Source of the DNA: a virus
Lineage: Duplodnaviria; Heunggongvirae; Uroviricota; Caudoviricetes
DNA length: 42,721 bases
Strand: one strand, 5' to 3'
IMG/VR virus record: IMGVR_UViG_2703718828_000007
Shown here: piece after piece, positions 2,835 to 20,808 of the stretch
Numbering within the stretch: position 1 is the stretch's first letter
Layout of the letters: every line of letters starts with the position of its first letter
The notes under the pieces: model-generated
The model's database searches: none
The model's input: only the letters and a program-made list of their open reading frames with translations
Told to the model about the DNA's origin: nothing
Made by a program: the position numbers and the translations under genes

Positions 2835-5800
2835 TTATGCCTGAGTACGCAGCGCTTCAAGGCGGCGCAGGTCGAAGTCGTTCAGTTCGTCGGTGTAGTC
2901 AGCAGTGATTGGCGCTGGCCATTCACCTGTGTCGAATCCGGTTGCGATATTGCGCATCGCTTTGCGGTACTCGAGCATACCCAGCTCCAGTAGTTCAGCG
3001 GATGCCTCGATGATGGCGATCCAGTGGTAGTTCTCGTCTTTGTTGACGAAAATCCAGAAGAACTGATCCAGCGCTGCGGTTTCGCAGTACATAGCCGCGC
3101 TCAGGTGATAATCACGTTCAATAATTTCCCGGTGTAGCCTGGCGCGCAGGCTTTCCTGCTTAACATTCCACATGCTGATGGTTTTCAGGTCTGCACCTAT
3201 ACGCACGCCATCCAGGTCGATCTCAAGGTCAGGGCGCACACGAACTTCCAAGCCCGTCTCCTCGTCAAAACCAAAGTAGCTCACCTCAACGGCTCGGCTA
3301 GGGTGGGTCAGCAGCATGCCGGCGGTCGGGTGTGCCAGAAGCGCTTTTTGAATATTCAGCGCGGTGCTCAGCTGCTGGCGGGTGACCAGCACTTTTCCTT
3401 CCGGGTTATCGCGCCAGGCATCCAGCAGTTCGTCGGCAAATACGGCATCTGGTTTGACTGCCTTTACGGCCTGGATCATGTCTGCTTTGGTACCGGACAC
3501 TTTCAGTGGTGCCGGTTTCTGTGCTTCCTGAGCCACAAGGTCAGGGTTGATGATTGCCAACTGCTCCAGCAGCGCGTCACGGCTGCCGCTGGTTTTAACC
3601 GGCGGCGGCAGGGTGGCGTTGTACTCTTTAATGCATGCCTTCATTGCCGTCGCCGTCTGCTTCTGGTCACCATCAATACGCTGGAAGTCAGCTGGCAGCG
3701 CCATATAGTTCTGTGCCGTTTCTTCCAGGTTAGCGCCAAGCGGAACCTGCGGCGGCAGGGTGGCGTTGTACTCTTCCAGTAACACCTTGATGTCGTCGGC
3801 AGACAGCAGCGCCGGCAGGCTGGCATTGTGCTCATCGATAAAGGCGCGCAGGGTCGCGGCCGTTGTGAATGCGCCTTCAGGGATCACCGGTTCAACGCTG
3901 AATTCTGCGTCCAGTAGTTCAGGCTGCAACGCCAGCGCATGCACCAAGTTGCCCATGTCCAGCACCGCTGAGCGCTCTTTGACGATGGTTTTCTCTACGT
4001 GGCGCGCATTGAAGTACATCAGCGAAACGCGCGCATCTTTCACCTGGGTTGAGCTGATGCCGTTGGCGGCGTGGTAAACCTCGTTTGGCAGCCCTTCATA
4101 GCGGCCTGGCTCGAAATAAGCGGGATAAACAACAGCTGGTTCGTCAGATTGCGCTTCTGGCTCGGTTTGTGCTGCAACTGGTTCGGTTTGGCTTACAGAA
4201 TCGCTATTTTTGGCGACAGAATCCGTATTCTGGTTTACATCGTCCTTCTGGCTGGTATCTGACTCTTCACCAGACTCCAGACTGCTTTCGCCTGGCTGTA
4301 CTTCATCACCAGCTTGTTTTTCATCACTGACAGTTTCTTGAACCTGCACATTGCTGGTGGTCTCCGTAGCCTTTTTCGTGCCATGAGTTGCTGAGTTCTG
4401 CAGCAAAGCCGTAACGTCGAATATTCCGTTGCCGACATTTTTAACCAGTTCTTGTTCGACTTTCTGCGGTTGTGCTGCCGCTTCCTCTGCGCGGCGGCGT
4501 GCTCCTTCTTCACGCACGCGTTGCAGGTTCTCTTCGTGAGTGCAGAAGGATTTGCGCGGAGACTCCTTACCTTCAGGTTGGGGAATTTCCTGTGCTGCGG
4601 GTTCAGCCTCATGCAACGGCAATAACTCGACCGCGGAATTGAACGCGGCTGTCATGGTCTGGTTAACAAATTCCAGGTGAGCGACAGGAGTTAAATGAAT
4701 ATTTTCCGGTGCGATACGTACCAGGTTAAAAATAGCCGTGCGGTTAACACCCAGAACGCCTGGCTGATTGCGCAGGATGTTGCTCCATGATTTCCATGGT
4801 TCTTCTTTTTTGGTCACGATTTCTTTAGCGCGACGAAGAATGCTGCCCGGGATCTCGAAGTGGTTGAAGTCCATAGGCAGAAGGGCACACGCAATCTCTA
4901 AATCGAGAGTGTCCAGTGTGTGGTGTGCGTCAGGTCCACGGTCAGTGACGTAACCGCCGTCGGCATTAGTGCCGGAATCAGTACGCTGCACACTACTGAT
5001 GCGATTACCGGCGGCCCATTCGCGAACGAGGATACCGCGGTCGATGTGATCTGTAGCGAACCACAATTTCAAAAACTGGATTAAGGTTGCGAGTTCAGGG
5101 ATTTTTCCATCGACAGGGAAGACTTTCTTAACGGCATTCACGACTTTATGAATATCGTGCTCAATGGCTTTTTTGAATGCTTCCACATTCTCAGCTGCCA
5201 GCAGCAGGTTCTGGACGTACGCGTCATCGGTGTCCATCTCAAGGCGGACAATCTCATTTTTCTGCCCTGCGTCGATGTGATAGAGATATTCACCATCACC
5301 GATGAACTGAGCCAGTACGCGCTGGCGGAATGGCAGGGTGGCAACAACGATCAGGTTCGGTTGCTGTGTCTGCTGGGATTGCTCTTCGGTATCGACTTCA
5401 CCATCAACGACGCCACCTTCTGCCCGGCCGTTCTCGTCGGTCTGGATACCGTCCTCAACAGTGAGATCTTGACCCGTTGTAACGTCAGCAGCGTTGCTGG
5501 TTTCAGTTTTGAGCAACTGCAACTTACCACTGCGCCAGTCTTCTACCAGTTGATTGCGGTCACCGGCATCGGTGTTCACCCAGTCAGACATGAATGCAGC
5601 GATCAATCTTGGTTCGTGCTCTTCGTCTGGTGTGAAAATGTCCTTAACCGCCCGAATCATTTTCCACTCAGCATTCAGGCTGAGTTTGGCGGTCGCGGGC
5701 ACATCGTTCCTTGCCACAAGCAGGCTATGGAGATATGTATTGCCTTCATCCAGTGACATTTCGCTGGCAGCCAACTGCTGCTCTTTAGTGACGTGGGTTT

Positions 5801-10871: not shown

Positions 10872-11557
10872 AATCTCTTGCAGAGCAGATGCGTAACCAC
10901 GACCGCGAGCAGATGAGCCGCATGGCCCATAACCTGCCAGAGCAGTACCAGGAGTGCGCGCCGGTCGAGCAGGTGGCGCAGGTATTCAACAAGCTGTTCA
11001 ACGAGCTGCGCGCCGCGTTCCCGGCCAGCATGGCGAACTTCCGCACCCAGGAAGACCTGAACGAATTCCGCCGTCAGTGGCTGCTGGCGTTTCAGGAGAA
11101 CGGGATCCACACCATGGCTCAGGTCGATGCCGGCATGCGCATTGCCCGCCGCCAGGAGCGCCCATTCCTGCCGTCGCCGGGCCAGTTCGTCGCCTGGTGC
11201 AAGCAGAGCGGCGGCGCGCTGGGCGTCAACGTTGACCAGGTGATCGCCGAATACTGGGACTGGCGTAACCGCTCGTTCGAATTCATCTCCAGCGAGCAAT
11301 TTCCATGGTCGCAGCCGGTCATGTACCACATTTGCGTAGAATTGCGCCACCGCAGCACCGAGCGCCAGTTAACGCATGGTGAACTGGCACGCGAGGCAGG
11401 CGATCTGCTGGACATGTGGGAAAGGCGCGTCACCGAGGGTAAGCCAGTGCCGCCGGTACGCCGGGCTATTGCCGCACCAGCTGCCGAGCAAGGGCCGACG
11501 CCGATCCAGCTGCTGCTGGCCAAGTACAACCGCAACAAGTCGAACGGGATGGTGTGA
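10868..11557 (+). CDS. Replication protein P-like (helicase loader)
   Basis: 229 aa, translationally coupled to O-like gene; assignment mainly by position and size. Confidence 0.5.
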   Translation: MKSLAEQMRNHDREQMSRMAHNLPEQYQECAPVEQVAQVFNKLFNELRAAFPASMANFRTQEDLNEFRRQWLLAFQENGIHTMAQVDAGMRIARRQERPFLPSPGQFVAWCKQSGGALGVNVDQVIAEYWDWRNRSFEFISSEQFPWSQPVMYHICVELRHRSTERQLTHGELAREAGDLLDMWERRVTEGKPVPPVRRAIAAPAAEQGPTPIQLLLAKYNRNKSNGMV

Positions 11558-11558
11558 C

Positions 11559-11799
11559 ATGAACATAACAATCCGTGAGCAGGTGCTGGCAGCCCTGCGC
11601 AACAACCCAGGGTTGAACAACGCCAAACTGGCAGGGCTTCCCGGAGTGGTACATCATCGATCAGGACTATCGGGGGCAGAAGTACGCGAAGGACAAGCAG
11701 GTTGCGCGTTGTGGCAACGCAGTTCCGCCGCCATTCGCCGAGGCACTGGTGAGGGCTAATTTACCGGAGCTTTGTCAGCAGAAAGAGATCGCAGCTTAA
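11559..11799 (+). pseudogene. Frameshifted C-terminal remnant of a C5-cytosine DNA methyltransferase
   Basis: Frame +1 reads WQGFPEWYIIDQDYRGQKYAKDKQVARCGNAVPPPFAEALVRANL (QGFP and GNAV motifs of motifs IX-X); ATG at 11559 is in another frame; no N-terminal catalytic domain present. Confidence 0.45.
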
Positions 11800-14754: not shown

Positions 14755-15444
14755 ATGAACACTCAATTCCTCGAATACGTGCGCCAGCAGCTGATGGTGG
14801 CTACCGCCGATTTAAGTGGTGCGACGAAAGGGCAGTTGATGGCGTGGCTTGAGAACGCGCAGTTTGATACGGGAACGTTTAAACGTAAGAAGCCTCGAAT
14901 ATTGGATGAAGTGACCGGGAAAATGATTACGCTTGATAACCCACCGATTCCCGGCAAACAGTCGCATACCAAGGGTTCGCATATTCCCTTGGTGCAACCG
15001 GTTGAGTATTCAACGGCATCGTGGCGCCGCGCACTGATGACGCTCGAAGAACACCAGAAGGCCTGGTTGCTATGGAACTATAGCGAGAATGTGAGTTGGG
15101 ATAATCAGGTGCTGATTACTCAGTGGGCGTGGTCGAAATTTTGCGAGCATCTGGCCGGGAGGAAGGTGGCGAAGAAGACCGTCGAACGGTTGCGACAGCT
15201 TATCTGGCTGGCGGCACAGGATGTGAAGGCTGAATTGGCTGGGCGTGATGTCTATCAATATGGTGATCTGGCTGCGCTGGTGGGAGTTAACAAAACAAAC
15301 TGGTCTCAAAATTACGTGGAACATTACAATGTAATTATCAGCCTGTATAAGGGACTCGACTCCAAGGCGCTACTTCATGTTTCGCGATCACGTTCACAAC
15401 AAAAGGCAGCAAACTATCAGCAAGGTATTGCAAAAATGAACTAA
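14755..15444 (+). CDS. Late-gene antiterminator, Q-like (tentative)
   Basis: 229 aa; last gene before PR'-like promoter, tR'-like terminator and lysis region. Confidence 0.45.
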   Translation: MNTQFLEYVRQQLMVATADLSGATKGQLMAWLENAQFDTGTFKRKKPRILDEVTGKMITLDNPPIPGKQSHTKGSHIPLVQPVEYSTASWRRALMTLEEHQKAWLLWNYSENVSWDNQVLITQWAWSKFCEHLAGRKVAKKTVERLRQLIWLAAQDVKAELAGRDVYQYGDLAALVGVNKTNWSQNYVEHYNVIISLYKGLDSKALLHVSRSRSQQKAANYQQGIAKMN

Positions 15445-15456
15445 TTAGCATATATT
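15428..15456 (+). promoter_or_regulatory. PR'-like late promoter
   Basis: TTGCAA, 17-nt spacer, TATATT overlapping the Q-like stop codon. Confidence 0.4.
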
Positions 15457-15490
15457 TCGTGTAAATTTGATATTGTGCCAACAGTATATA

Positions 15491-15516
15491 AACCCGCCAG
15501 TGAGCGGGTTTTTTAA
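15491..15516 (+). terminator. tR'-like rho-independent terminator
   Basis: ACCCGC-CAGTGA-GCGGGT hairpin followed by TTTTTT; about 35 nt after predicted late start site. Confidence 0.6.
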
Positions 15517-15866
15517 TTTTGCGGAATACTTTTTTAATCGCAGAAAAGCATGTCGTTTCGTTTTGATAGGAAAAAACGATGGATAGGCAACACAAGGCTC
15601 TAATGTGCGTAAGTTTGATGGATATGATAATTACGCACAGCTTATCAACAATATTTTGCTATTAGTTAAGTTGTGAATAACTTTTTTTGTTGATAACTCT
15701 TTTTTCTGTGGATAAGTCTGTAGGTTTATTAAATTCTTATGCACAAGTAGAACGCTGATGGTCCTGTACAATCCCGTAAAAGCTTCAATACTGATGACAG
15801 CAATATAAAAACCTATCCAGTGAAGCTATTGAAAACATACAGAATTTAGTTTTCTTCGGGAAAATT

Positions 15867-16622
15867 ATGTCAGGACAGCCTGAGTCAAAAGAACAAGAAC
15901 TGCTTGCAACAATCCTCGATTACTTCCAGAAGGGAGAAGTCCCGGATACAGACACTATTGCGGAAATTGAGCACGACATTGCTAAACTTCCAATAAGTGA
16001 GCGCGCACATGCGTATGCATGGCTTAATGGAACTCTCGGGCGTCACTCTGATGCAGTACGTTTATTCAAAGACGCGATGAGCTCTGGGAGTCCAACGATC
16101 GCACAAAACTACTTGGCGTATCTTTCTCGTTCGGCTCATAACTATGAGCATCGCGTTGAGTTGTTTAGAATAGTTGAGCTTTTCCCTTCACATGAACTGA
16201 GGCTTGTAGCAAGAAACGCTGCATTTTGTATCGGCAACGACAAGTTGGTTAAAAAGTTCTCCCTCAAAATGGCTGCTCTTTATGATGGCCAAGAGCGAGA
16301 GGATATAATCAATCAGGGAAATTATATGGCTGAACAGATTGTTGATTTCAAAAACGCTACCCGTCTTTCTTCTCGAGAACTAGAAGCCCTTTGCGATCAA
16401 GCTGAAGAGATTGCGAACAAGCGCGGTATTAACTGTTCAAGTGTTAGCTATTATCTTGGTGGAGATGATGACAATGCATTCATCGTTAGAGCCCAAACTG
16501 CTGATCCGCAGGTTTTAGCTGAAATGAACATGGAACTGTTGGTTTTGCTCTCAGATGATAGTTATCGGAACAGCCCTTTTACATCCTGGTTCCAAAGCGA
16601 TGAAAAAAGAGGGATTTACTGA
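15867..16622 (+). CDS. Hypothetical protein (251 aa), gene 1 of AT-rich two-gene cassette
   Basis: No recognisable motif; predicted helical; stop overlaps gene 2 start (TGATG). Confidence 0.6.
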   Translation: MSGQPESKEQELLATILDYFQKGEVPDTDTIAEIEHDIAKLPISERAHAYAWLNGTLGRHSDAVRLFKDAMSSGSPTIAQNYLAYLSRSAHNYEHRVELFRIVELFPSHELRLVARNAAFCIGNDKLVKKFSLKMAALYDGQEREDIINQGNYMAEQIVDFKNATRLSSRELEALCDQAEEIANKRGINCSSVSYYLGGDDDNAFIVRAQTADPQVLAEMNMELLVLLSDDSYRNSPFTSWFQSDEKRGIY

Positions 16623-17026
16623 TGAGCGTATCGGGGAAAGATTTTATTGTTTTTGCTGGTAAATGCATTTCTCACAACGATGAAATCGGTTACAGAAACG
16701 CCATTGGTCGAGCGTATTATGGAGTTTATCATGAAACGCTTGATAAGCTTGAGAAATGCCCAAACAAGTCGTCACACCAAGCTGTTCGCGACTATCTTAC
16801 AAATGATGCATGGTTAAAAGGAAATGAGCCGTTTGAAAAAATGAAACTCATTTCTATGGGAACAATGCTGAGACATTTGCATACCCGACGTAAATGGGCA
16901 GATTACGAGCTTGATAGAACTTTAAGTAAGGCTGATGCGGAAGCTATATTGATAATGGCTAACAAAGCTATTGACACCCTTCAGCAGATGTATGAGCAGG
17001 TTTATCCATCCGAACCTGCTGCTTGA
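16622..17026 (+). CDS. Hypothetical protein (134 aa), gene 2 of cassette; tentative HEPN-like R-x6-H spacing
   Basis: GRAYYGVYH segment; translationally coupled to gene 1; terminator follows. Confidence 0.6.
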   Translation: MSVSGKDFIVFAGKCISHNDEIGYRNAIGRAYYGVYHETLDKLEKCPNKSSHQAVRDYLTNDAWLKGNEPFEKMKLISMGTMLRHLHTRRKWADYELDRTLSKADAEAILIMANKAIDTLQQMYEQVYPSEPAA

Positions 17027-17043
17027 TTATCTATTCGAAATAA

Positions 17044-17067
17044 CCTCGCTTAAGCGGGGTTTTTTTA
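17044..17067 (+). terminator. Rho-independent terminator after two-gene cassette
   Basis: CCTCGC-TTAA-GCGGGG hairpin (one G-U pair) followed by TTTTTTT. Confidence 0.55.
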
Positions 17068-17235
17068 TGCCTTCGCACCTCCATTTCGGAGGTATTTTGC
17101 TGTGAAAATGGGCGGCTGGTGGATGTTGGAGCACCCACCAGCCATCAGCTCATGCTTTCAGGTCACAAGCTAACCAAGGCCCATTGCTTTAGCGCAAAAG
17201 CAAAGAGAGCCTATCAGAGTTACGCTTATTGATCT

Positions 17236-18288
17236 ATGAAAAATACTGTAAATATAAACAGTGTCGAGTTAGTCAACGCTGATAGCCTGCAATACATCGC
17301 CACTCTCCCTGATAACTCCATTGACCTGATAGTCACGGATCCGCCGTACTTCAAAGTGAAACCCAACGGCTGGGACAATCAGTGGAAAGGGGATGAGGAT
17401 TATCTTCGCTGGCTTGATATGTGCCTCGCACAATTCTGGCGAGTGCTTAAACCTGCTGGCAGTCTTTATCTTTTCTCCGGTCACCGCCTGGCGGCAGACA
17501 TTGAGATCATGATGCGTGAGCGGTTCAACGTCCTGAACCACATCATCTGGGCTAAACCGTCGGGCCGCTGGAATGGCTGTAATAAAGAGAGTCTGCGCTC
17601 TTACTTCCCTGCAACAGAGCGCATCCTCTTCGCTGAGCATTACCAGGGGCCGTATAAACCAAAGAGCGACGGTTACGCGGAGAAGGGAAGCGAGCTGAAG
17701 CAGCATGTAATGACTCCCCTAATTTCTTATTTCCGGGATGCACGTGAAGCGCTTGGCATAACCTCAAAACAAATAGCCGATGCGACTGGAAAGAAGAACA
17801 TGGTGTCTCACTGGTTCAGCGGTAGCCAGTGGCAATTACCGAATGAATTAGACTACCGGAATCTTCAGTCCCTTTTCACGCAGGTAGCCATCGAAAAGCA
17901 CCAGAACGGCGAACTGGCAACACCACACCACCAGCTGGTGGCTATGTGGCATTCGTTAAATCGCAAGTATTCAGAGCTGCTCGAAGAGTACAAATCGCTT
18001 CGGCGGCATTTCTCTGTTTCCGTATCCGTTCCTTATACCGACGTCTGGACACATAAACCCGTTCAGTTTTACCCAGGTAAACACCCATGCGAAAAACCCG
18101 CTGACATGTTGCGGCAGATCATCAACGCCAGCAGTAAGCCTGGTGATGTGGTGGCTGATTTCTTTATGGGGTCCGGTTCGACCGTGAAAATCGCGCTGGA
18201 ACTTGGCCGCCAGGCTATCGGCGTTGAACTCGAGGAGGACAGGTTTAGCCAGACGGTGGAGGAAATAAGGGCGTTAACAGGGGAATAA
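17236..18288 (+). CDS. DNA methyltransferase, beta-class amino-MTase (N6-adenine or N4-cytosine), orphan
   Basis: Motif IV DPPY near N-terminus (LIVTDPPYF) and motif I FFMGSGST near C-terminus; no restriction endonuclease partner recognised. Confidence 0.8.
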   Translation: MKNTVNINSVELVNADSLQYIATLPDNSIDLIVTDPPYFKVKPNGWDNQWKGDEDYLRWLDMCLAQFWRVLKPAGSLYLFSGHRLAADIEIMMRERFNVLNHIIWAKPSGRWNGCNKESLRSYFPATERILFAEHYQGPYKPKSDGYAEKGSELKQHVMTPLISYFRDAREALGITSKQIADATGKKNMVSHWFSGSQWQLPNELDYRNLQSLFTQVAIEKHQNGELATPHHQLVAMWHSLNRKYSELLEEYKSLRRHFSVSVSVPYTDVWTHKPVQFYPGKHPCEKPADMLRQIINASSKPGDVVADFFMGSGSTVKIALELGRQAIGVELEEDRFSQTVEEIRALTGE

Positions 18289-18356: not shown

Positions 18357-18659
18357 ATGAAAATGAATGATTCAGGGAACATTTTCACGCAGTTCTTCGC
18401 GTGGGTAGCAGCTCTGGCGTCAGCCATTGGTTTTACCACTCAGGATATGGTGTTCATGTTCTTTGGCGCCGCTGGTCTGCTTATCTCGTTTGCCTCCTAT
18501 GTCAATGGTCGCGTGGATGCCCACCGCAGGCGTAGAGAGGACGAGAAGCGAACAAAAATGGTTAATGACTACCTGAAAGGCGTTGGTGATAAACCCCTTC
18601 ACGAACGTCCTGCGGCTGCAAGCGTGGTCGTTGAGGCATTACAAAAGGAAGGTGAGTGA
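18357..18659 (+). CDS. Holin (putative, two-TM type)
   Basis: 100 aa; two hydrophobic helices then charged C-terminus (RRRREDEKRTK); overlaps endolysin start. Confidence 0.55.
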   Translation: MKMNDSGNIFTQFFAWVAALASAIGFTTQDMVFMFFGAAGLLISFASYVNGRVDAHRRRREDEKRTKMVNDYLKGVGDKPLHERPAAASVVVEALQKEGE

Positions 18660-19192
18660 TGGGATCCAGAGCAAAATTAAGTGCTGCTGTTCTGGGGTTG
18701 GTACTTGCTGGTGCGCCAGCATCCGTCATTCTCGATCAGTTTCTGAATGAGAAAGAGGGAAACAGCCTTACAGCGTACAAAGATGGCAGCGGTATCTGGA
18801 CGATTTGCCGGGGAGCTACCACGGTTGACGGCAAGCCTGTTACCCCAGGTATGAGGCTATCGCCAGAGAAATGTAATCAGGTGAACGCCAGCGAGCTGAA
18901 CAAGGCGCTGGCTTGGGTCGACCGCAATATCCAGGTACCACTGACCGAACCGCAGAAAGCGGGGATTGCCTCATTCTGCCCGTACAACATTGGTCCTGGT
19001 AAATGCTTCCCTTCTACCTTTTATAAACGCATCAACGCCGGTGATCGTAAAGGGGCATGTGAAGCAATCCGCTGGTGGATCAAAGACGGTGGCCGCGATT
19101 GCCGACTAACCAAAGGCCAGAAGAATGGCTGCTATGGTCAGGTTGAGAGACGGGACCAGGAAAGCGCGCTGGCGTGTTGGGGGTTAGATTAG
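18656..19192 (+). CDS. SAR endolysin (phage lysozyme)
   Basis: N-terminal signal-anchor-release helix ([16 protein letters not shown]), E...D...T catalytic spacing, C-terminal similarity to phage 21-type lysozyme (from memory). Confidence 0.8.
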
Positions 19193-19685: not shown

Positions 19686-20090
19686 ATGCAAATAGATCAA
19701 GAATACCTTAAAGGTTTGCTCGAGGCTTTCGAGGCATCGGATTCACCTGATACCGATATTATTCGATTAAATGATTTAGGGTTCAATTGTGAAACTGACA
19801 CATTTGTGTTTCATATGCGTTTGCTTGAGGATAGAGGGCTGATTATCAGGAGTGATGGGGAGCCCGGCTTTGGTGCTATTCAGTCTTTAGACGGAATGAC
19901 TCACTGGGCTGTAATGCCCTTGCGATTGACCGCGATGGGGCATGACTTCTTGGATGCTCTCCGTAACAAAGAGGTTTGGGCAACATTAAAAACCGGATTC
20001 AAAGATGCCAGTATGGGCACGCTGATGACAGTTTCGAAGGAGCTGTTTAACCGAGCTCTTGCTAAGCAACTTGATAAAATGTTCGACTAA
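19686..20090 (+). CDS. Hypothetical protein (134 aa), moron-like
   Basis: AT-rich ORF after lysis cassette, own terminator downstream. Confidence 0.5.
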   Translation: MQIDQEYLKGLLEAFEASDSPDTDIIRLNDLGFNCETDTFVFHMRLLEDRGLIIRSDGEPGFGAIQSLDGMTHWAVMPLRLTAMGHDFLDALRNKEVWATLKTGFKDASMGTLMTVSKELFNRALAKQLDKMFD

Positions 20091-20111
20091 CCGCCTACGG
20101 GCGGTTTTTTA
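20090..20111 (+). terminator. Rho-independent terminator
   Basis: CCGCC-TACG-GGCGG hairpin followed by TTTTTT. Confidence 0.6.
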
Positions 20112-20166
20112 TTGTCAACTTTATGAGCAAACTGATCTTAATTACTGTAACTAGGAGGTCAATGAT

Positions 20167-20808
20167 ATGGCAACGCTTAAGGACCTTTCCAGTCAGTTAA
20201 GACAGCTGCAGAAGCAAATACCGTTTGCGACTGCCCAGGCTATGACTAAAGTGGTTCGCCAGATAGAAGCGGCCCAAAAAACAGCATTTGAGCGGAATCT
20301 GGATAATCCAACACCTTTTACAGTTAAATCGGTAGGGTCAGTTGGTGCCAGGAAAAACAGCCTTCGTGCGAAGGTGTTTGTTCGTGATACTGCTGCTGGC
20401 TACCTTGAACCCTTCGAGTTCGGCGGAGAGCACAAGCTTAATGGTAGTGCTTTGCTTAATCCGAAAGACATAAAGCTTAATAAATACGGCAACCTGCCGC
20501 GTAATAAGCTCTCTCAGCTCAAAGCAAAGCCAAACGTATTTATTGGTGACGTTGGTGGCGTGAATGCCGTGTGGCAGAGAAAAAAGCCGAAAATCAAAAA
20601 AGGGAAGAAACGGGCAAAACGTTCTCCGAACGGCACGCGCAGAGACAAGATTAAGCAACCTGCACCAAAATTGCTCATTCGGTTTGGAGACGCGCTTCCA
20701 GTCAAACCAACGCTCGGCTATATGGACAGGGCAAACACCATGGTCAACGCATTGTTACCCTCAGCGCTGCACCAGGCGATTGCTGAGGCGATCAGCTCGG
20801 CCAGATAG
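20167..20808 (+). CDS. Hypothetical basic protein (213 aa) upstream of cos region
   Basis: AGGAGG RBS 8 nt upstream; Lys/Arg-rich centre (KKPKIKKGKKRAKR). Confidence 0.5.
   Translation: MATLKDLSSQLRQLQKQIPFATAQAMTKVVRQIEAAQKTAFERNLDNPTPFTVKSVGSVGARKNSLRAKVFVRDTAAGYLEPFEFGGEHKLNGSALLNPKDIKLNKYGNLPRNKLSQLKAKPNVFIGDVGGVNAVWQRKKPKIKKGKKRAKRSPNGTRRDKIKQPAPKLLIRFGDALPVKPTLGYMDRANTMVNALLPSALHQAIAEAISSAR

Follow-up and report, generated by a model that had tools for sequence, protein, structure and literature searches.

What are the two small genes that lie between the antiterminator gene Q and the lysis genes of this prophage, and what might they do for the element that carries them? The stretch of DNA analysed, referred to here as the window (42,721 nucleotides), is a complete lambdoid prophage of 42.7 kb. 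An integrase gene occupies positions 1–1194, and RecT and a RecE-like exonuclease are followed by Q, the lysis genes, terminase and tail genes. Lambdoid phages are known to carry morons in the interval between Q and the lysis genes, stx being an example. An earlier note on this DNA had placed a two-gene accessory cassette there, encoding proteins that it regarded as unrecognisable.

The Q gene (14755–15444, plus strand) matches Pfam family PF06323 (Phage_antiter_Q) with an E-value of 1.2e-97, and PHROG 304. Its 3′ end is overlapped by a pR′-like sigma-70 promoter match, TTGCAA-17-TATATT (15428–15456, plus strand), which scores 9/12 in a consensus scan and which, judged from its position after Q, would act as pR′. 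A tR′-like intrinsic terminator, made up of the hairpin AAACCCGCCAGTGAGCGGGTTT and a T-run, follows at 15490–15520 on the same strand. Downstream of the two genes, and outside the cassette, a gene for an N6/N4 DNA methyltransferase (17236–18288, plus strand; PF01555, E 1.3e-42; PADLOC MTase_II, E 7e-145) precedes the lysis genes, which comprise a holin-like ORF at 18357, lysozyme at 18656 and Rz at 19174. The description of the locus as lying between Q/tR′ and the lysis genes is thus right on the Q/tR′ side and needs amending on the other, where the methyltransferase gene intervenes. In the window, the cassette sits within the Q-dependent late transcript. Farther along, 3′ of the lysis genes, there is a DUF2513 gene with four matches among deposited phage records; none of these is phi80, and so no link was found to the phi80 Tai locus.

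A leader and a terminator, with two genes of coupled translation between them, make up the cassette. Gene 1 (15867–16622, plus strand) encodes 251 amino acids and gene 2 (16622–17026, plus strand) encodes 134, each from an ATG start and at exactly the coordinates previously assigned. The TGA of gene 1 (16620–16622) and the ATG of gene 2 (16622–16624) share one base within the sequence CTGATGA, as expected from the reported stop/start overlap. The AT-rich non-coding leader, estimated beforehand at about 350 bp, measures 346 nt with a GC content of 0.34 and extends from the tR′-like terminator to gene 1 (15521–15866, plus strand). After gene 2, the predicted hairpin and T-run are found at 17042–17068 on the plus strand, where the palindrome AACCTCGCTTAAGCGGGGTT followed by T7 forms the cassette's own intrinsic terminator. 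Terminator-like sites are enriched across 15300–17400, with 8 present against 1.3 ± 1.0 in shuffled sequences. The GC content is 0.34–0.35 in the leader and 0.40–0.46 in the two genes, compared with about 0.49–0.55 in the flanking phage genes, so that the region as a whole (0.34–0.46) is indeed more AT-rich than its surroundings.

On the left, the cassette joins the prophage at about 15505, within the tR′-like hairpin (3′ arm and T-run), and identity with a prophage bearing a different Q and a tRNA-Thr starts at GGGTTTTTTAAT. The 12-mer at this junction is found again at the cassette's own terminator, and both junction regions finish with the identical terminator tail GGGTTTTTT(A/T)AT. The right junction is situated 5′ of the methyltransferase gene (17088–17235, plus strand), with megablast matches beginning at query position 1644–1651; from about 17088 onward, the sequence is common to cassette-free prophages, such as that of Nissle 1917, in which the slot holds instead an SDH-family Clp-fold serine protease together with small ORFs. 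Carriers of the cassette number 12 among 5,426 complete E. coli genomes. These copies are at least 99.7% identical and chromosomal, all occupy the Q-to-methyltransferase slot, and they stand behind two different Q types, one of which also has the tRNA-Thr after Q. The presence or absence of the cassette among otherwise related prophages, and the alternative cargo in Nissle 1917, uphold the claim that it is accessory, and the features of a moron are found in its atypical composition, its presence/absence polymorphism and its own terminator. We conclude that the cassette is a self-contained and horizontally mobile accessory unit, a moron, of some 1.58 kb spanning roughly 15505–17087.

Analysis of the gene 2 product at the level of its family assigns it, as a prediction from profiles and fold, to the HEPN-fold proteins of the HEPN-T (PF05168/UPF0332) type. 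The window protein taken alone has no Pfam match at E ≤ 1 and none in NCBIfam or the PDB, and it matches only PHROG 5176, of unknown function. Pfam HEPN PF05168 is nevertheless matched by 8 of 24 homologues, with a best E-value of 1.5e-5, and comparison of the family profile with the PDB returns 9xbd/9xbc, annotated 'HEPN domain-containing protein' (E 3.1e-5), and 2hsb (E 1.7); we found no papers mentioning 9xbd or 9xbc. The protein is an all-α up-down helical bundle that can be superposed on solved HEPN domains. The description of both proteins as unrecognisable does not survive these results, or those for gene 1 (see below).

Across 39 distinct sequences, the residues Ala12, Glu21, Arg25, Arg30, Tyr32, Tyr33, His37, Leu83, Arg90, Asp94 and Tyr95 of gene 2 are invariant, and this invariance holds down to 26% identity. 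In the alignment with 9xbd, the segment R90-K-W-A-D94-Y95 falls on R-N-R-S-D-Y. This segment occupies the position of the canonical Rx4–6H endoribonuclease motif and contains no histidine; the canonical motif is absent from gene 2 and the catalytic histidine is missing. The spacing R-x6-H, in GRAYYGVYH, had been taken as a hint of a HEPN-type RNase. The sequence is present, located in helix 2, and its Arg30 and His37 are invariant in the 39 distinct homologues, and the hint was correct as to the fold, but GRAYYGVYH is not the canonical motif. In HEPN-T proteins, the canonical histidine is replaced by aspartate, and a histidine conserved at another position may take part in activity (PMC3710099, Table 1). 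Both features are found here, since Asp94 and His37 are invariant in all 39 distinct sequences; Arg30 and His37 are the counterpart of what the same table calls the 'alternative conserved H' of this subclass. The helix topology would place His37 and the segment Arg90–Tyr95 together at one end of the bundle.

Nine of the invariant residues are polar or aromatic and cluster in two motifs, a pattern more suggestive of an active site than of a passive fold. As far as we are aware, RNase activity has not been demonstrated experimentally for D/Y-substituted HEPN-T proteins. Domains of this type may act through RNA or nucleotide binding alone, and non-catalytic HEPN domains have been discussed (PMC3710099). 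A regulatory or housekeeping-like pair without toxicity can be envisaged, in which the HEPN-T protein binds a nucleotide or RNA without nuclease activity and the gene 1 protein serves as a scaffold that modulates host physiology; this would be lysogenic conversion unrelated to phages. We consider such a role improbable, given the invariance of the nine residues at identities as low as 26% and the precedent that small HEPN proteins of mobile elements have proved to be toxins or effectors wherever tested (PMC7641770, PMC13043305, PMC11087260).

The AlphaFold model of the gene 1 protein (pLDDT 86.7) contains eight helices spanning residues 8–136, a long helical hairpin at 141–184 and a β-β-α-β arrangement at 190–244. 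In this model, gene 1 is a TPR-like helical repeat protein (residues from about 8 to 136) with a C-terminal α/β domain; the latter is RimP-N-like, with no helix between its first two strands. The protein belongs to PHROG 17809, of unknown function, and an exhaustive HMM comparison with 1.84 billion representative proteins recovered only 71 clusters, nearly all of 250–260 amino acids and matching over their full length, with no fusion to other domains in any of them. A profile scan of genome contigs for gene 1 gave no match. Among 52 aligned members there is no invariant column and no invariant acidic pair. No nucleotidyltransferase signature was detected, either by Pfam in 14 members or in NCBIfam or PADLOC. 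We considered whether gene 1 might be a diverged MNT nucleotidyltransferase; the fold, the missing motifs and the lack of family-wide invariant residues rule this out, and thus gene 1 is not an MNT antitoxin. On the model and the alignment, the protein is most probably non-enzymatic.

To define the association between the two genes, loci with either gene were taken from IMG/VR, GTDB genomes and assembly look-ups, and all their ORFs were scanned with HMMs of both families. In every locus retrieved, a gene-1-family ORF lies directly upstream of a gene-2-family ORF on the same strand. The co-occurrence in other genomes that the earlier note had proposed checking is strict in 43 further distinct loci, counted as distinct sequence pairs besides the window. 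The two ORFs overlap or are separated by no more than 15 nt in all 43, against a 1-nt overlap in the window, and the pairing is kept down to 26–40% identity for gene 2 and about 22% for gene 1. In the sole HMM-negative locus, on a 2.8-kb Thiotrichaceae MAG contig, an ORF of 266 amino acids still overlaps gene 2 by 8 nt, and in a Klebsiella prophage record gene 2 is annotated as fragments, yet the ORF is intact. The identities of the two proteins to the window copies drop together. In 35 of 36 pairs gene 1 has diverged further than gene 2, the difference averaging 12 percentage points. Its faster divergence, taken with the lack of invariant residues, agrees better with a role in binding or sensing than with catalysis.

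Some of these features would also suit a plain addiction toxin–antitoxin pair: the genes overlap, the larger partner comes first, the two co-occur strictly and diverge together, gene 2 has a HEPN fold, and the pair resides on mobile elements. Gene 1 would then be a labile antitoxin and gene 2 a HEPN toxin, the two stabilising the prophage or islet with no dedicated sensing of phages. We regard this as unlikely. Gene 1 is unusually large for an antitoxin and TPR-like; it gives no HTH, RHH or AbrB match that would indicate a DNA-binding domain, and the model is well ordered throughout with high pLDDT, leaving no disordered tail by which a toxin might be neutralised. Addiction is, moreover, of little use to an integrated prophage, and the cassette occupies classical lysogenic-conversion slots.

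The pair occurs in at least five kinds of genomic place. The Q-to-lysis slot is used in prophages of E. coli, Morganella and Enterobacter ludwigii. In Hafnia, Pseudocitrobacter and a viral contig adjoining mutS, the pair lies at the att–int edge, with the bacterial flank on one side and a convergent integrase gene on the other, and in Erwinia, Enterobacter SA187 and a P2/Mu-like element it is at the tail-fibre/umuDC end of the prophage. It precedes the tape-measure gene in a Klebsiella prophage, and in Gilliamella it is chromosomal, flanked by frr and an MFS transporter gene, and no phage genes are visible nearby. The pair was not seen in classical defence islands among the loci examined. In most of these contexts the pair cannot belong to a late operon, which implies that the unit is able to drive its own transcription.

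The leader contains conserved blocks and, before gene 1, a weak Shine–Dalgarno sequence. A consensus scan of its plus strand found no sigma-70 match of 9/12 or better. A −10-like TACAAT at 15767–15772 lies inside the invariant block CTGTACAATCC, which is kept in the leaders of relatives at 96–75% identity. Upstream of this is an array of DnaA-box-like 9-mers (15604–15745, no strand assigned), in which five sites with at most one mismatch to TTATCCACA, at 15642, 15672, 15688, 15707 (a perfect match) and 15737, are accompanied by an inverted pair of two-mismatch sites at 15604/15631. Dinucleotide shuffling of the leader gave a mean of 0.10 such sites in 20,000 trials, none of which reached five, and 5 of the 15 matches in the whole window fall within 104 bp (15642–15745). 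A footprint alignment reveals that the sites are kept, with single substitutions, where gene 1 is 96–75% identical; they are missing from the leaders of more distant pairs. A DnaA-controlled promoter in the leader is an attractive explanation for these sequence features and the array, if real, would represent an uncommon way of regulating prophage cargo. Two other leader candidates were set aside. An ORF of 28 codons (15579–15665) has a strong Shine–Dalgarno sequence and a conserved start, but a stop at codon 4 in the homologous locus L020 means that it is not counted as a gene; searches for a known RNA in the leader or at the 3′ end gave sub-threshold Rfam matches only.

The lack of a strong promoter of its own in the scan, and the location of the cassette within the late operon between Q and lysis in the E. 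coli, Morganella and Enterobacter ludwigii prophages, would also suit a role in lytic growth. The genes would then be transcribed from pR′ under Q antitermination and would serve as an anti-defence or host-takeover pair. The HEPN protein might, for example, sequester or process host or rival RNA or a signalling nucleotide, for which the non-canonical motif is compatible with a binding function (PMC3710099); the TPR protein could have a host immune protein as its target. This is rather doubtful, however, because the pair is also found outside late operons, convergent with integrase, at umuDC/tail-fibre edges and in the Gilliamella chromosome, because the leader is conserved and bears a regulatory-looking array of sites, and because gene 2 is present in just 1 of 50,697 deposited phage genome records, making the pair very rare in sequenced phage genomes.

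Overall, we tentatively favour, at somewhat short of an even chance, a toxin/sensor module resembling abortive-infection systems, in which the TPR protein restrains the HEPN effector and triggers it. Gene 2, probably dimeric like other HEPN proteins, would act on RNA by cleavage or by tight binding through an active site composed of the invariant Arg90, Asp94 and Tyr95 together with Arg30 and His37. Gene 1, produced in step with gene 2, would bind the HEPN protein and keep it inactive, acting as the specificity or sensor subunit. We infer that the pair is expressed in the lysogen and that, on infection, the gene 1 protein either engages a phage-derived protein or is lost, freeing the HEPN effector, whereupon translation would stop and the infection abort. 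Several observations weigh against this reading: the missing canonical histidine, the lack of a D/Y-type HEPN-T protein known to be an RNase, the absence of a significant PADLOC match for the window proteins, a leader with no clear sigma-70 promoter, and the fact that the pair was not seen in classical defence islands. A re-sequenced Enterobacter SA187 genome (CP100130) also carries an apparent 1-nt frameshift in gene 1, its gene 2 being intact, which, if real, argues against a constitutively lethal toxin. A more specific form of this proposal, a two-component abortive-infection system whose TPR receptor senses a phage protein and releases a His-less HEPN-T RNase, with expression wired to DnaA and so tied to the replication state, is in our estimation a speculative one and on balance unlikely. 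The cassette is small (1.6 kb), self-contained, derived from E. coli and easily cloned, so that toxicity, defence spectrum and trigger are directly testable.

Neither protein of the window has a significant match to a known defence model or named family, in keeping with the earlier suggestion of an undescribed module. PADLOC-DB 2.0.0 gives nothing for gene 1 and, for gene 2, PDC-M05B at a non-significant E-value of 0.012; neither protein has a match in NCBIfam. The matches of gene 2 homologues in PADLOC are weak, with PDC-M05B in 5 of 24 (best 8.7e-5) and HEPN_IX in 2 of 24, and there is no consistent match among 52 relatives of gene 1. Both are 'hypothetical protein' in RefSeq, and no published papers on them were found by protein accession or PHROG identifier. 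The earlier note had named housekeeping homology and a lack of conserved pairing as outcomes that would count against an accessory module; no such homology was found and the pairing is conserved. Identity with a DefensePredictor system was also considered: the RefSeq accessions of the two proteins do not appear in the portion of the supplement text searched, and DS-28, a two-gene HEPN system in the same source, as compared by eye, has a canonical RNSVAH HEPN protein first and an unrelated-looking partner of 252 amino acids.

In arrangement, the cassette resembles the HEPN-MNT (HepT/MntA) type VII toxin–antitoxin, which likewise has co-directional, adjacent genes with the partner upstream and translation coupled; in mntA–hepT operons, the partner comes first and the HEPN gene second, with stop and start overlapping (PMC7641770). 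The pairs differ in that gene 1 is not a nucleotidyltransferase and gene 2 is without the Rx4H motif. Since the fold of gene 1 is TPR plus RimP-N-like with no nucleotidyltransferase match, neutralisation by AMPylation is not expected. HEPN-T family members of known structure include AF0298 (2hsb), TT1696 (1ufb), ST0689 (1wol) and PDB entry 9xbd. Classical HEPN-T proteins are encoded beside, or fused to, minimal nucleotidyltransferases, whereas here the partner is TPR-like. Coupling of HEPN genes to TPR or Sel1 repeat genes has been described for the LA2681 family and for AbiU2, which occurs with a Sel1-repeat gene (PMC3710099, Table 1). The likeness of these to the present pair is one of genomic coupling alone, to an α-solenoid repeat protein; their HEPN families, also uncharacterised, retain the Rx4–6H motif, unlike gene 2.

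In lifestyle, the pair resembles HepS of Gifsy-1 (PMC13043305) and Tha of S. aureus (PMC11087260), which are prophage-encoded and represent an established class of HEPN proteins acting in abortive infection. HepS is, however, a solo protein of 218 residues with a canonical R100-x4-H105 motif and no partner, whereas gene 2 encodes 134 residues, is non-canonical and always occurs with its partner gene; we treat HepS, Tha and Tai as analogues only and not as homologues. With lambdoid morons, the cassette shares a distinct base composition, its own terminator, presence/absence polymorphism and alternative cargo in a fixed slot, and it differs from them in using at least three other slots and one chromosomal site. 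If functional, it would provide a new type of partner for the abundant HEPN effectors, with a TPR-like receptor replacing the nucleotidyltransferase. It would likewise offer the first way into the function of the large HEPN-T subclass with a replaced catalytic histidine, a group that is uncharacterised biochemically. Two-gene HEPN modules on mobile elements are known; what is new in this one is the TPR-like partner, the His-less HEPN-T effector and the architecture of the leader.

The cassette carries a shared terminator tail, GGGTTTTTT(A/T)AT, at each of its ends, at positions 15506-15517 and 17057-17068 of the window. When the window is compared with a prophage whose Q gene is of another type, the left junction falls within this same tail. 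A junction inside a tail that recurs at both ends suggests, at the level of sequence, that the cassette was gained or swapped through recombination at terminators, whether by insertion or by exchange.

The slot between Q and the methyltransferase gene is a cargo hot spot, since a prophage of Escherichia coli Nissle 1917 (locus L003, 2521-3999) has different cargo there, namely an SDH-family Clp-fold serine protease (289 aa) together with two small ORFs, of 68 and 63 aa. The N6/N4 DNA methyltransferase itself (17236-18288), apparently an orphan, is encoded after the cassette and ahead of the holin-like gene, and prophages without the cassette conserve it as well. Its two methylase halves are split by a weak HTH_3-like segment spanning residues 167-197 (E = 9e-4). 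Two more accessory-looking genes are found between Rz and the terminase region, at 19686-20808, where the GC content is lower, at 0.40-0.46. One encodes a DUF2513 protein of 134 aa belonging to PHROG 585 (function unknown), with only four matches in deposited phage records; the other is a 213-aa ORF for which a Pfam search returned no match. Base composition is also unusual in the early region, where the GC content of positions 11000-11750 reaches 0.62-0.65, against approximately 0.50 in the rest of the prophage.

The leader of the cassette contains a dense array of 9-mers (15604-15745) that resemble the DnaA box by sequence match. Five sites have at most one mismatch, one of them being perfect, and the array also holds an inverted pair with two mismatches. 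The mean number of such sites in shuffled sequences is 0.10, and none of 20,000 shuffles attained five. The sites are kept in close relatives only. An ORF of 28 codons (15579-15665), preceded by the strong Shine-Dalgarno sequence TAGGAAAAAACGATG, lies within an invariant block of the leader. It is probably non-coding, because in a related leader (locus L020) it meets a stop at codon 4, and the invariance around it may reflect the putative binding sites.

The pair occupies yet another slot in Klebsiella phage ST405-OXA48phi1.3 (MK416008; locus L089), upstream of a zinc-ribbon gene and a tape-measure gene. Here, a gene 1 homologue (E = 6e-45) precedes a gene 2 homologue (4018-4416), which the annotation splits into two small fragments but which is in fact one intact ORF of 132 codons. 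In one of the two assemblies of Enterobacter sp. SA187 (CP100130, locus L085, 4242-5004, compared with CP019113, locus L086), an A-run contains one extra base that shifts the reading frame of gene 1, while gene 2 is intact. Either the sequencing was in error here, or gene 1 has been lost naturally and the cell tolerates its absence.

A literature search for PDB entries 9xbd and 9xbc, the closest solved HEPN sequences, found no paper. Within the aligned region, the two entries differ solely by a Tyr-to-Phe change in the motif R-N-R-S-D-Y, and from this comparison of sequences, the tyrosine, which aligns with Tyr95 of gene 2, has apparently already been probed experimentally by others.
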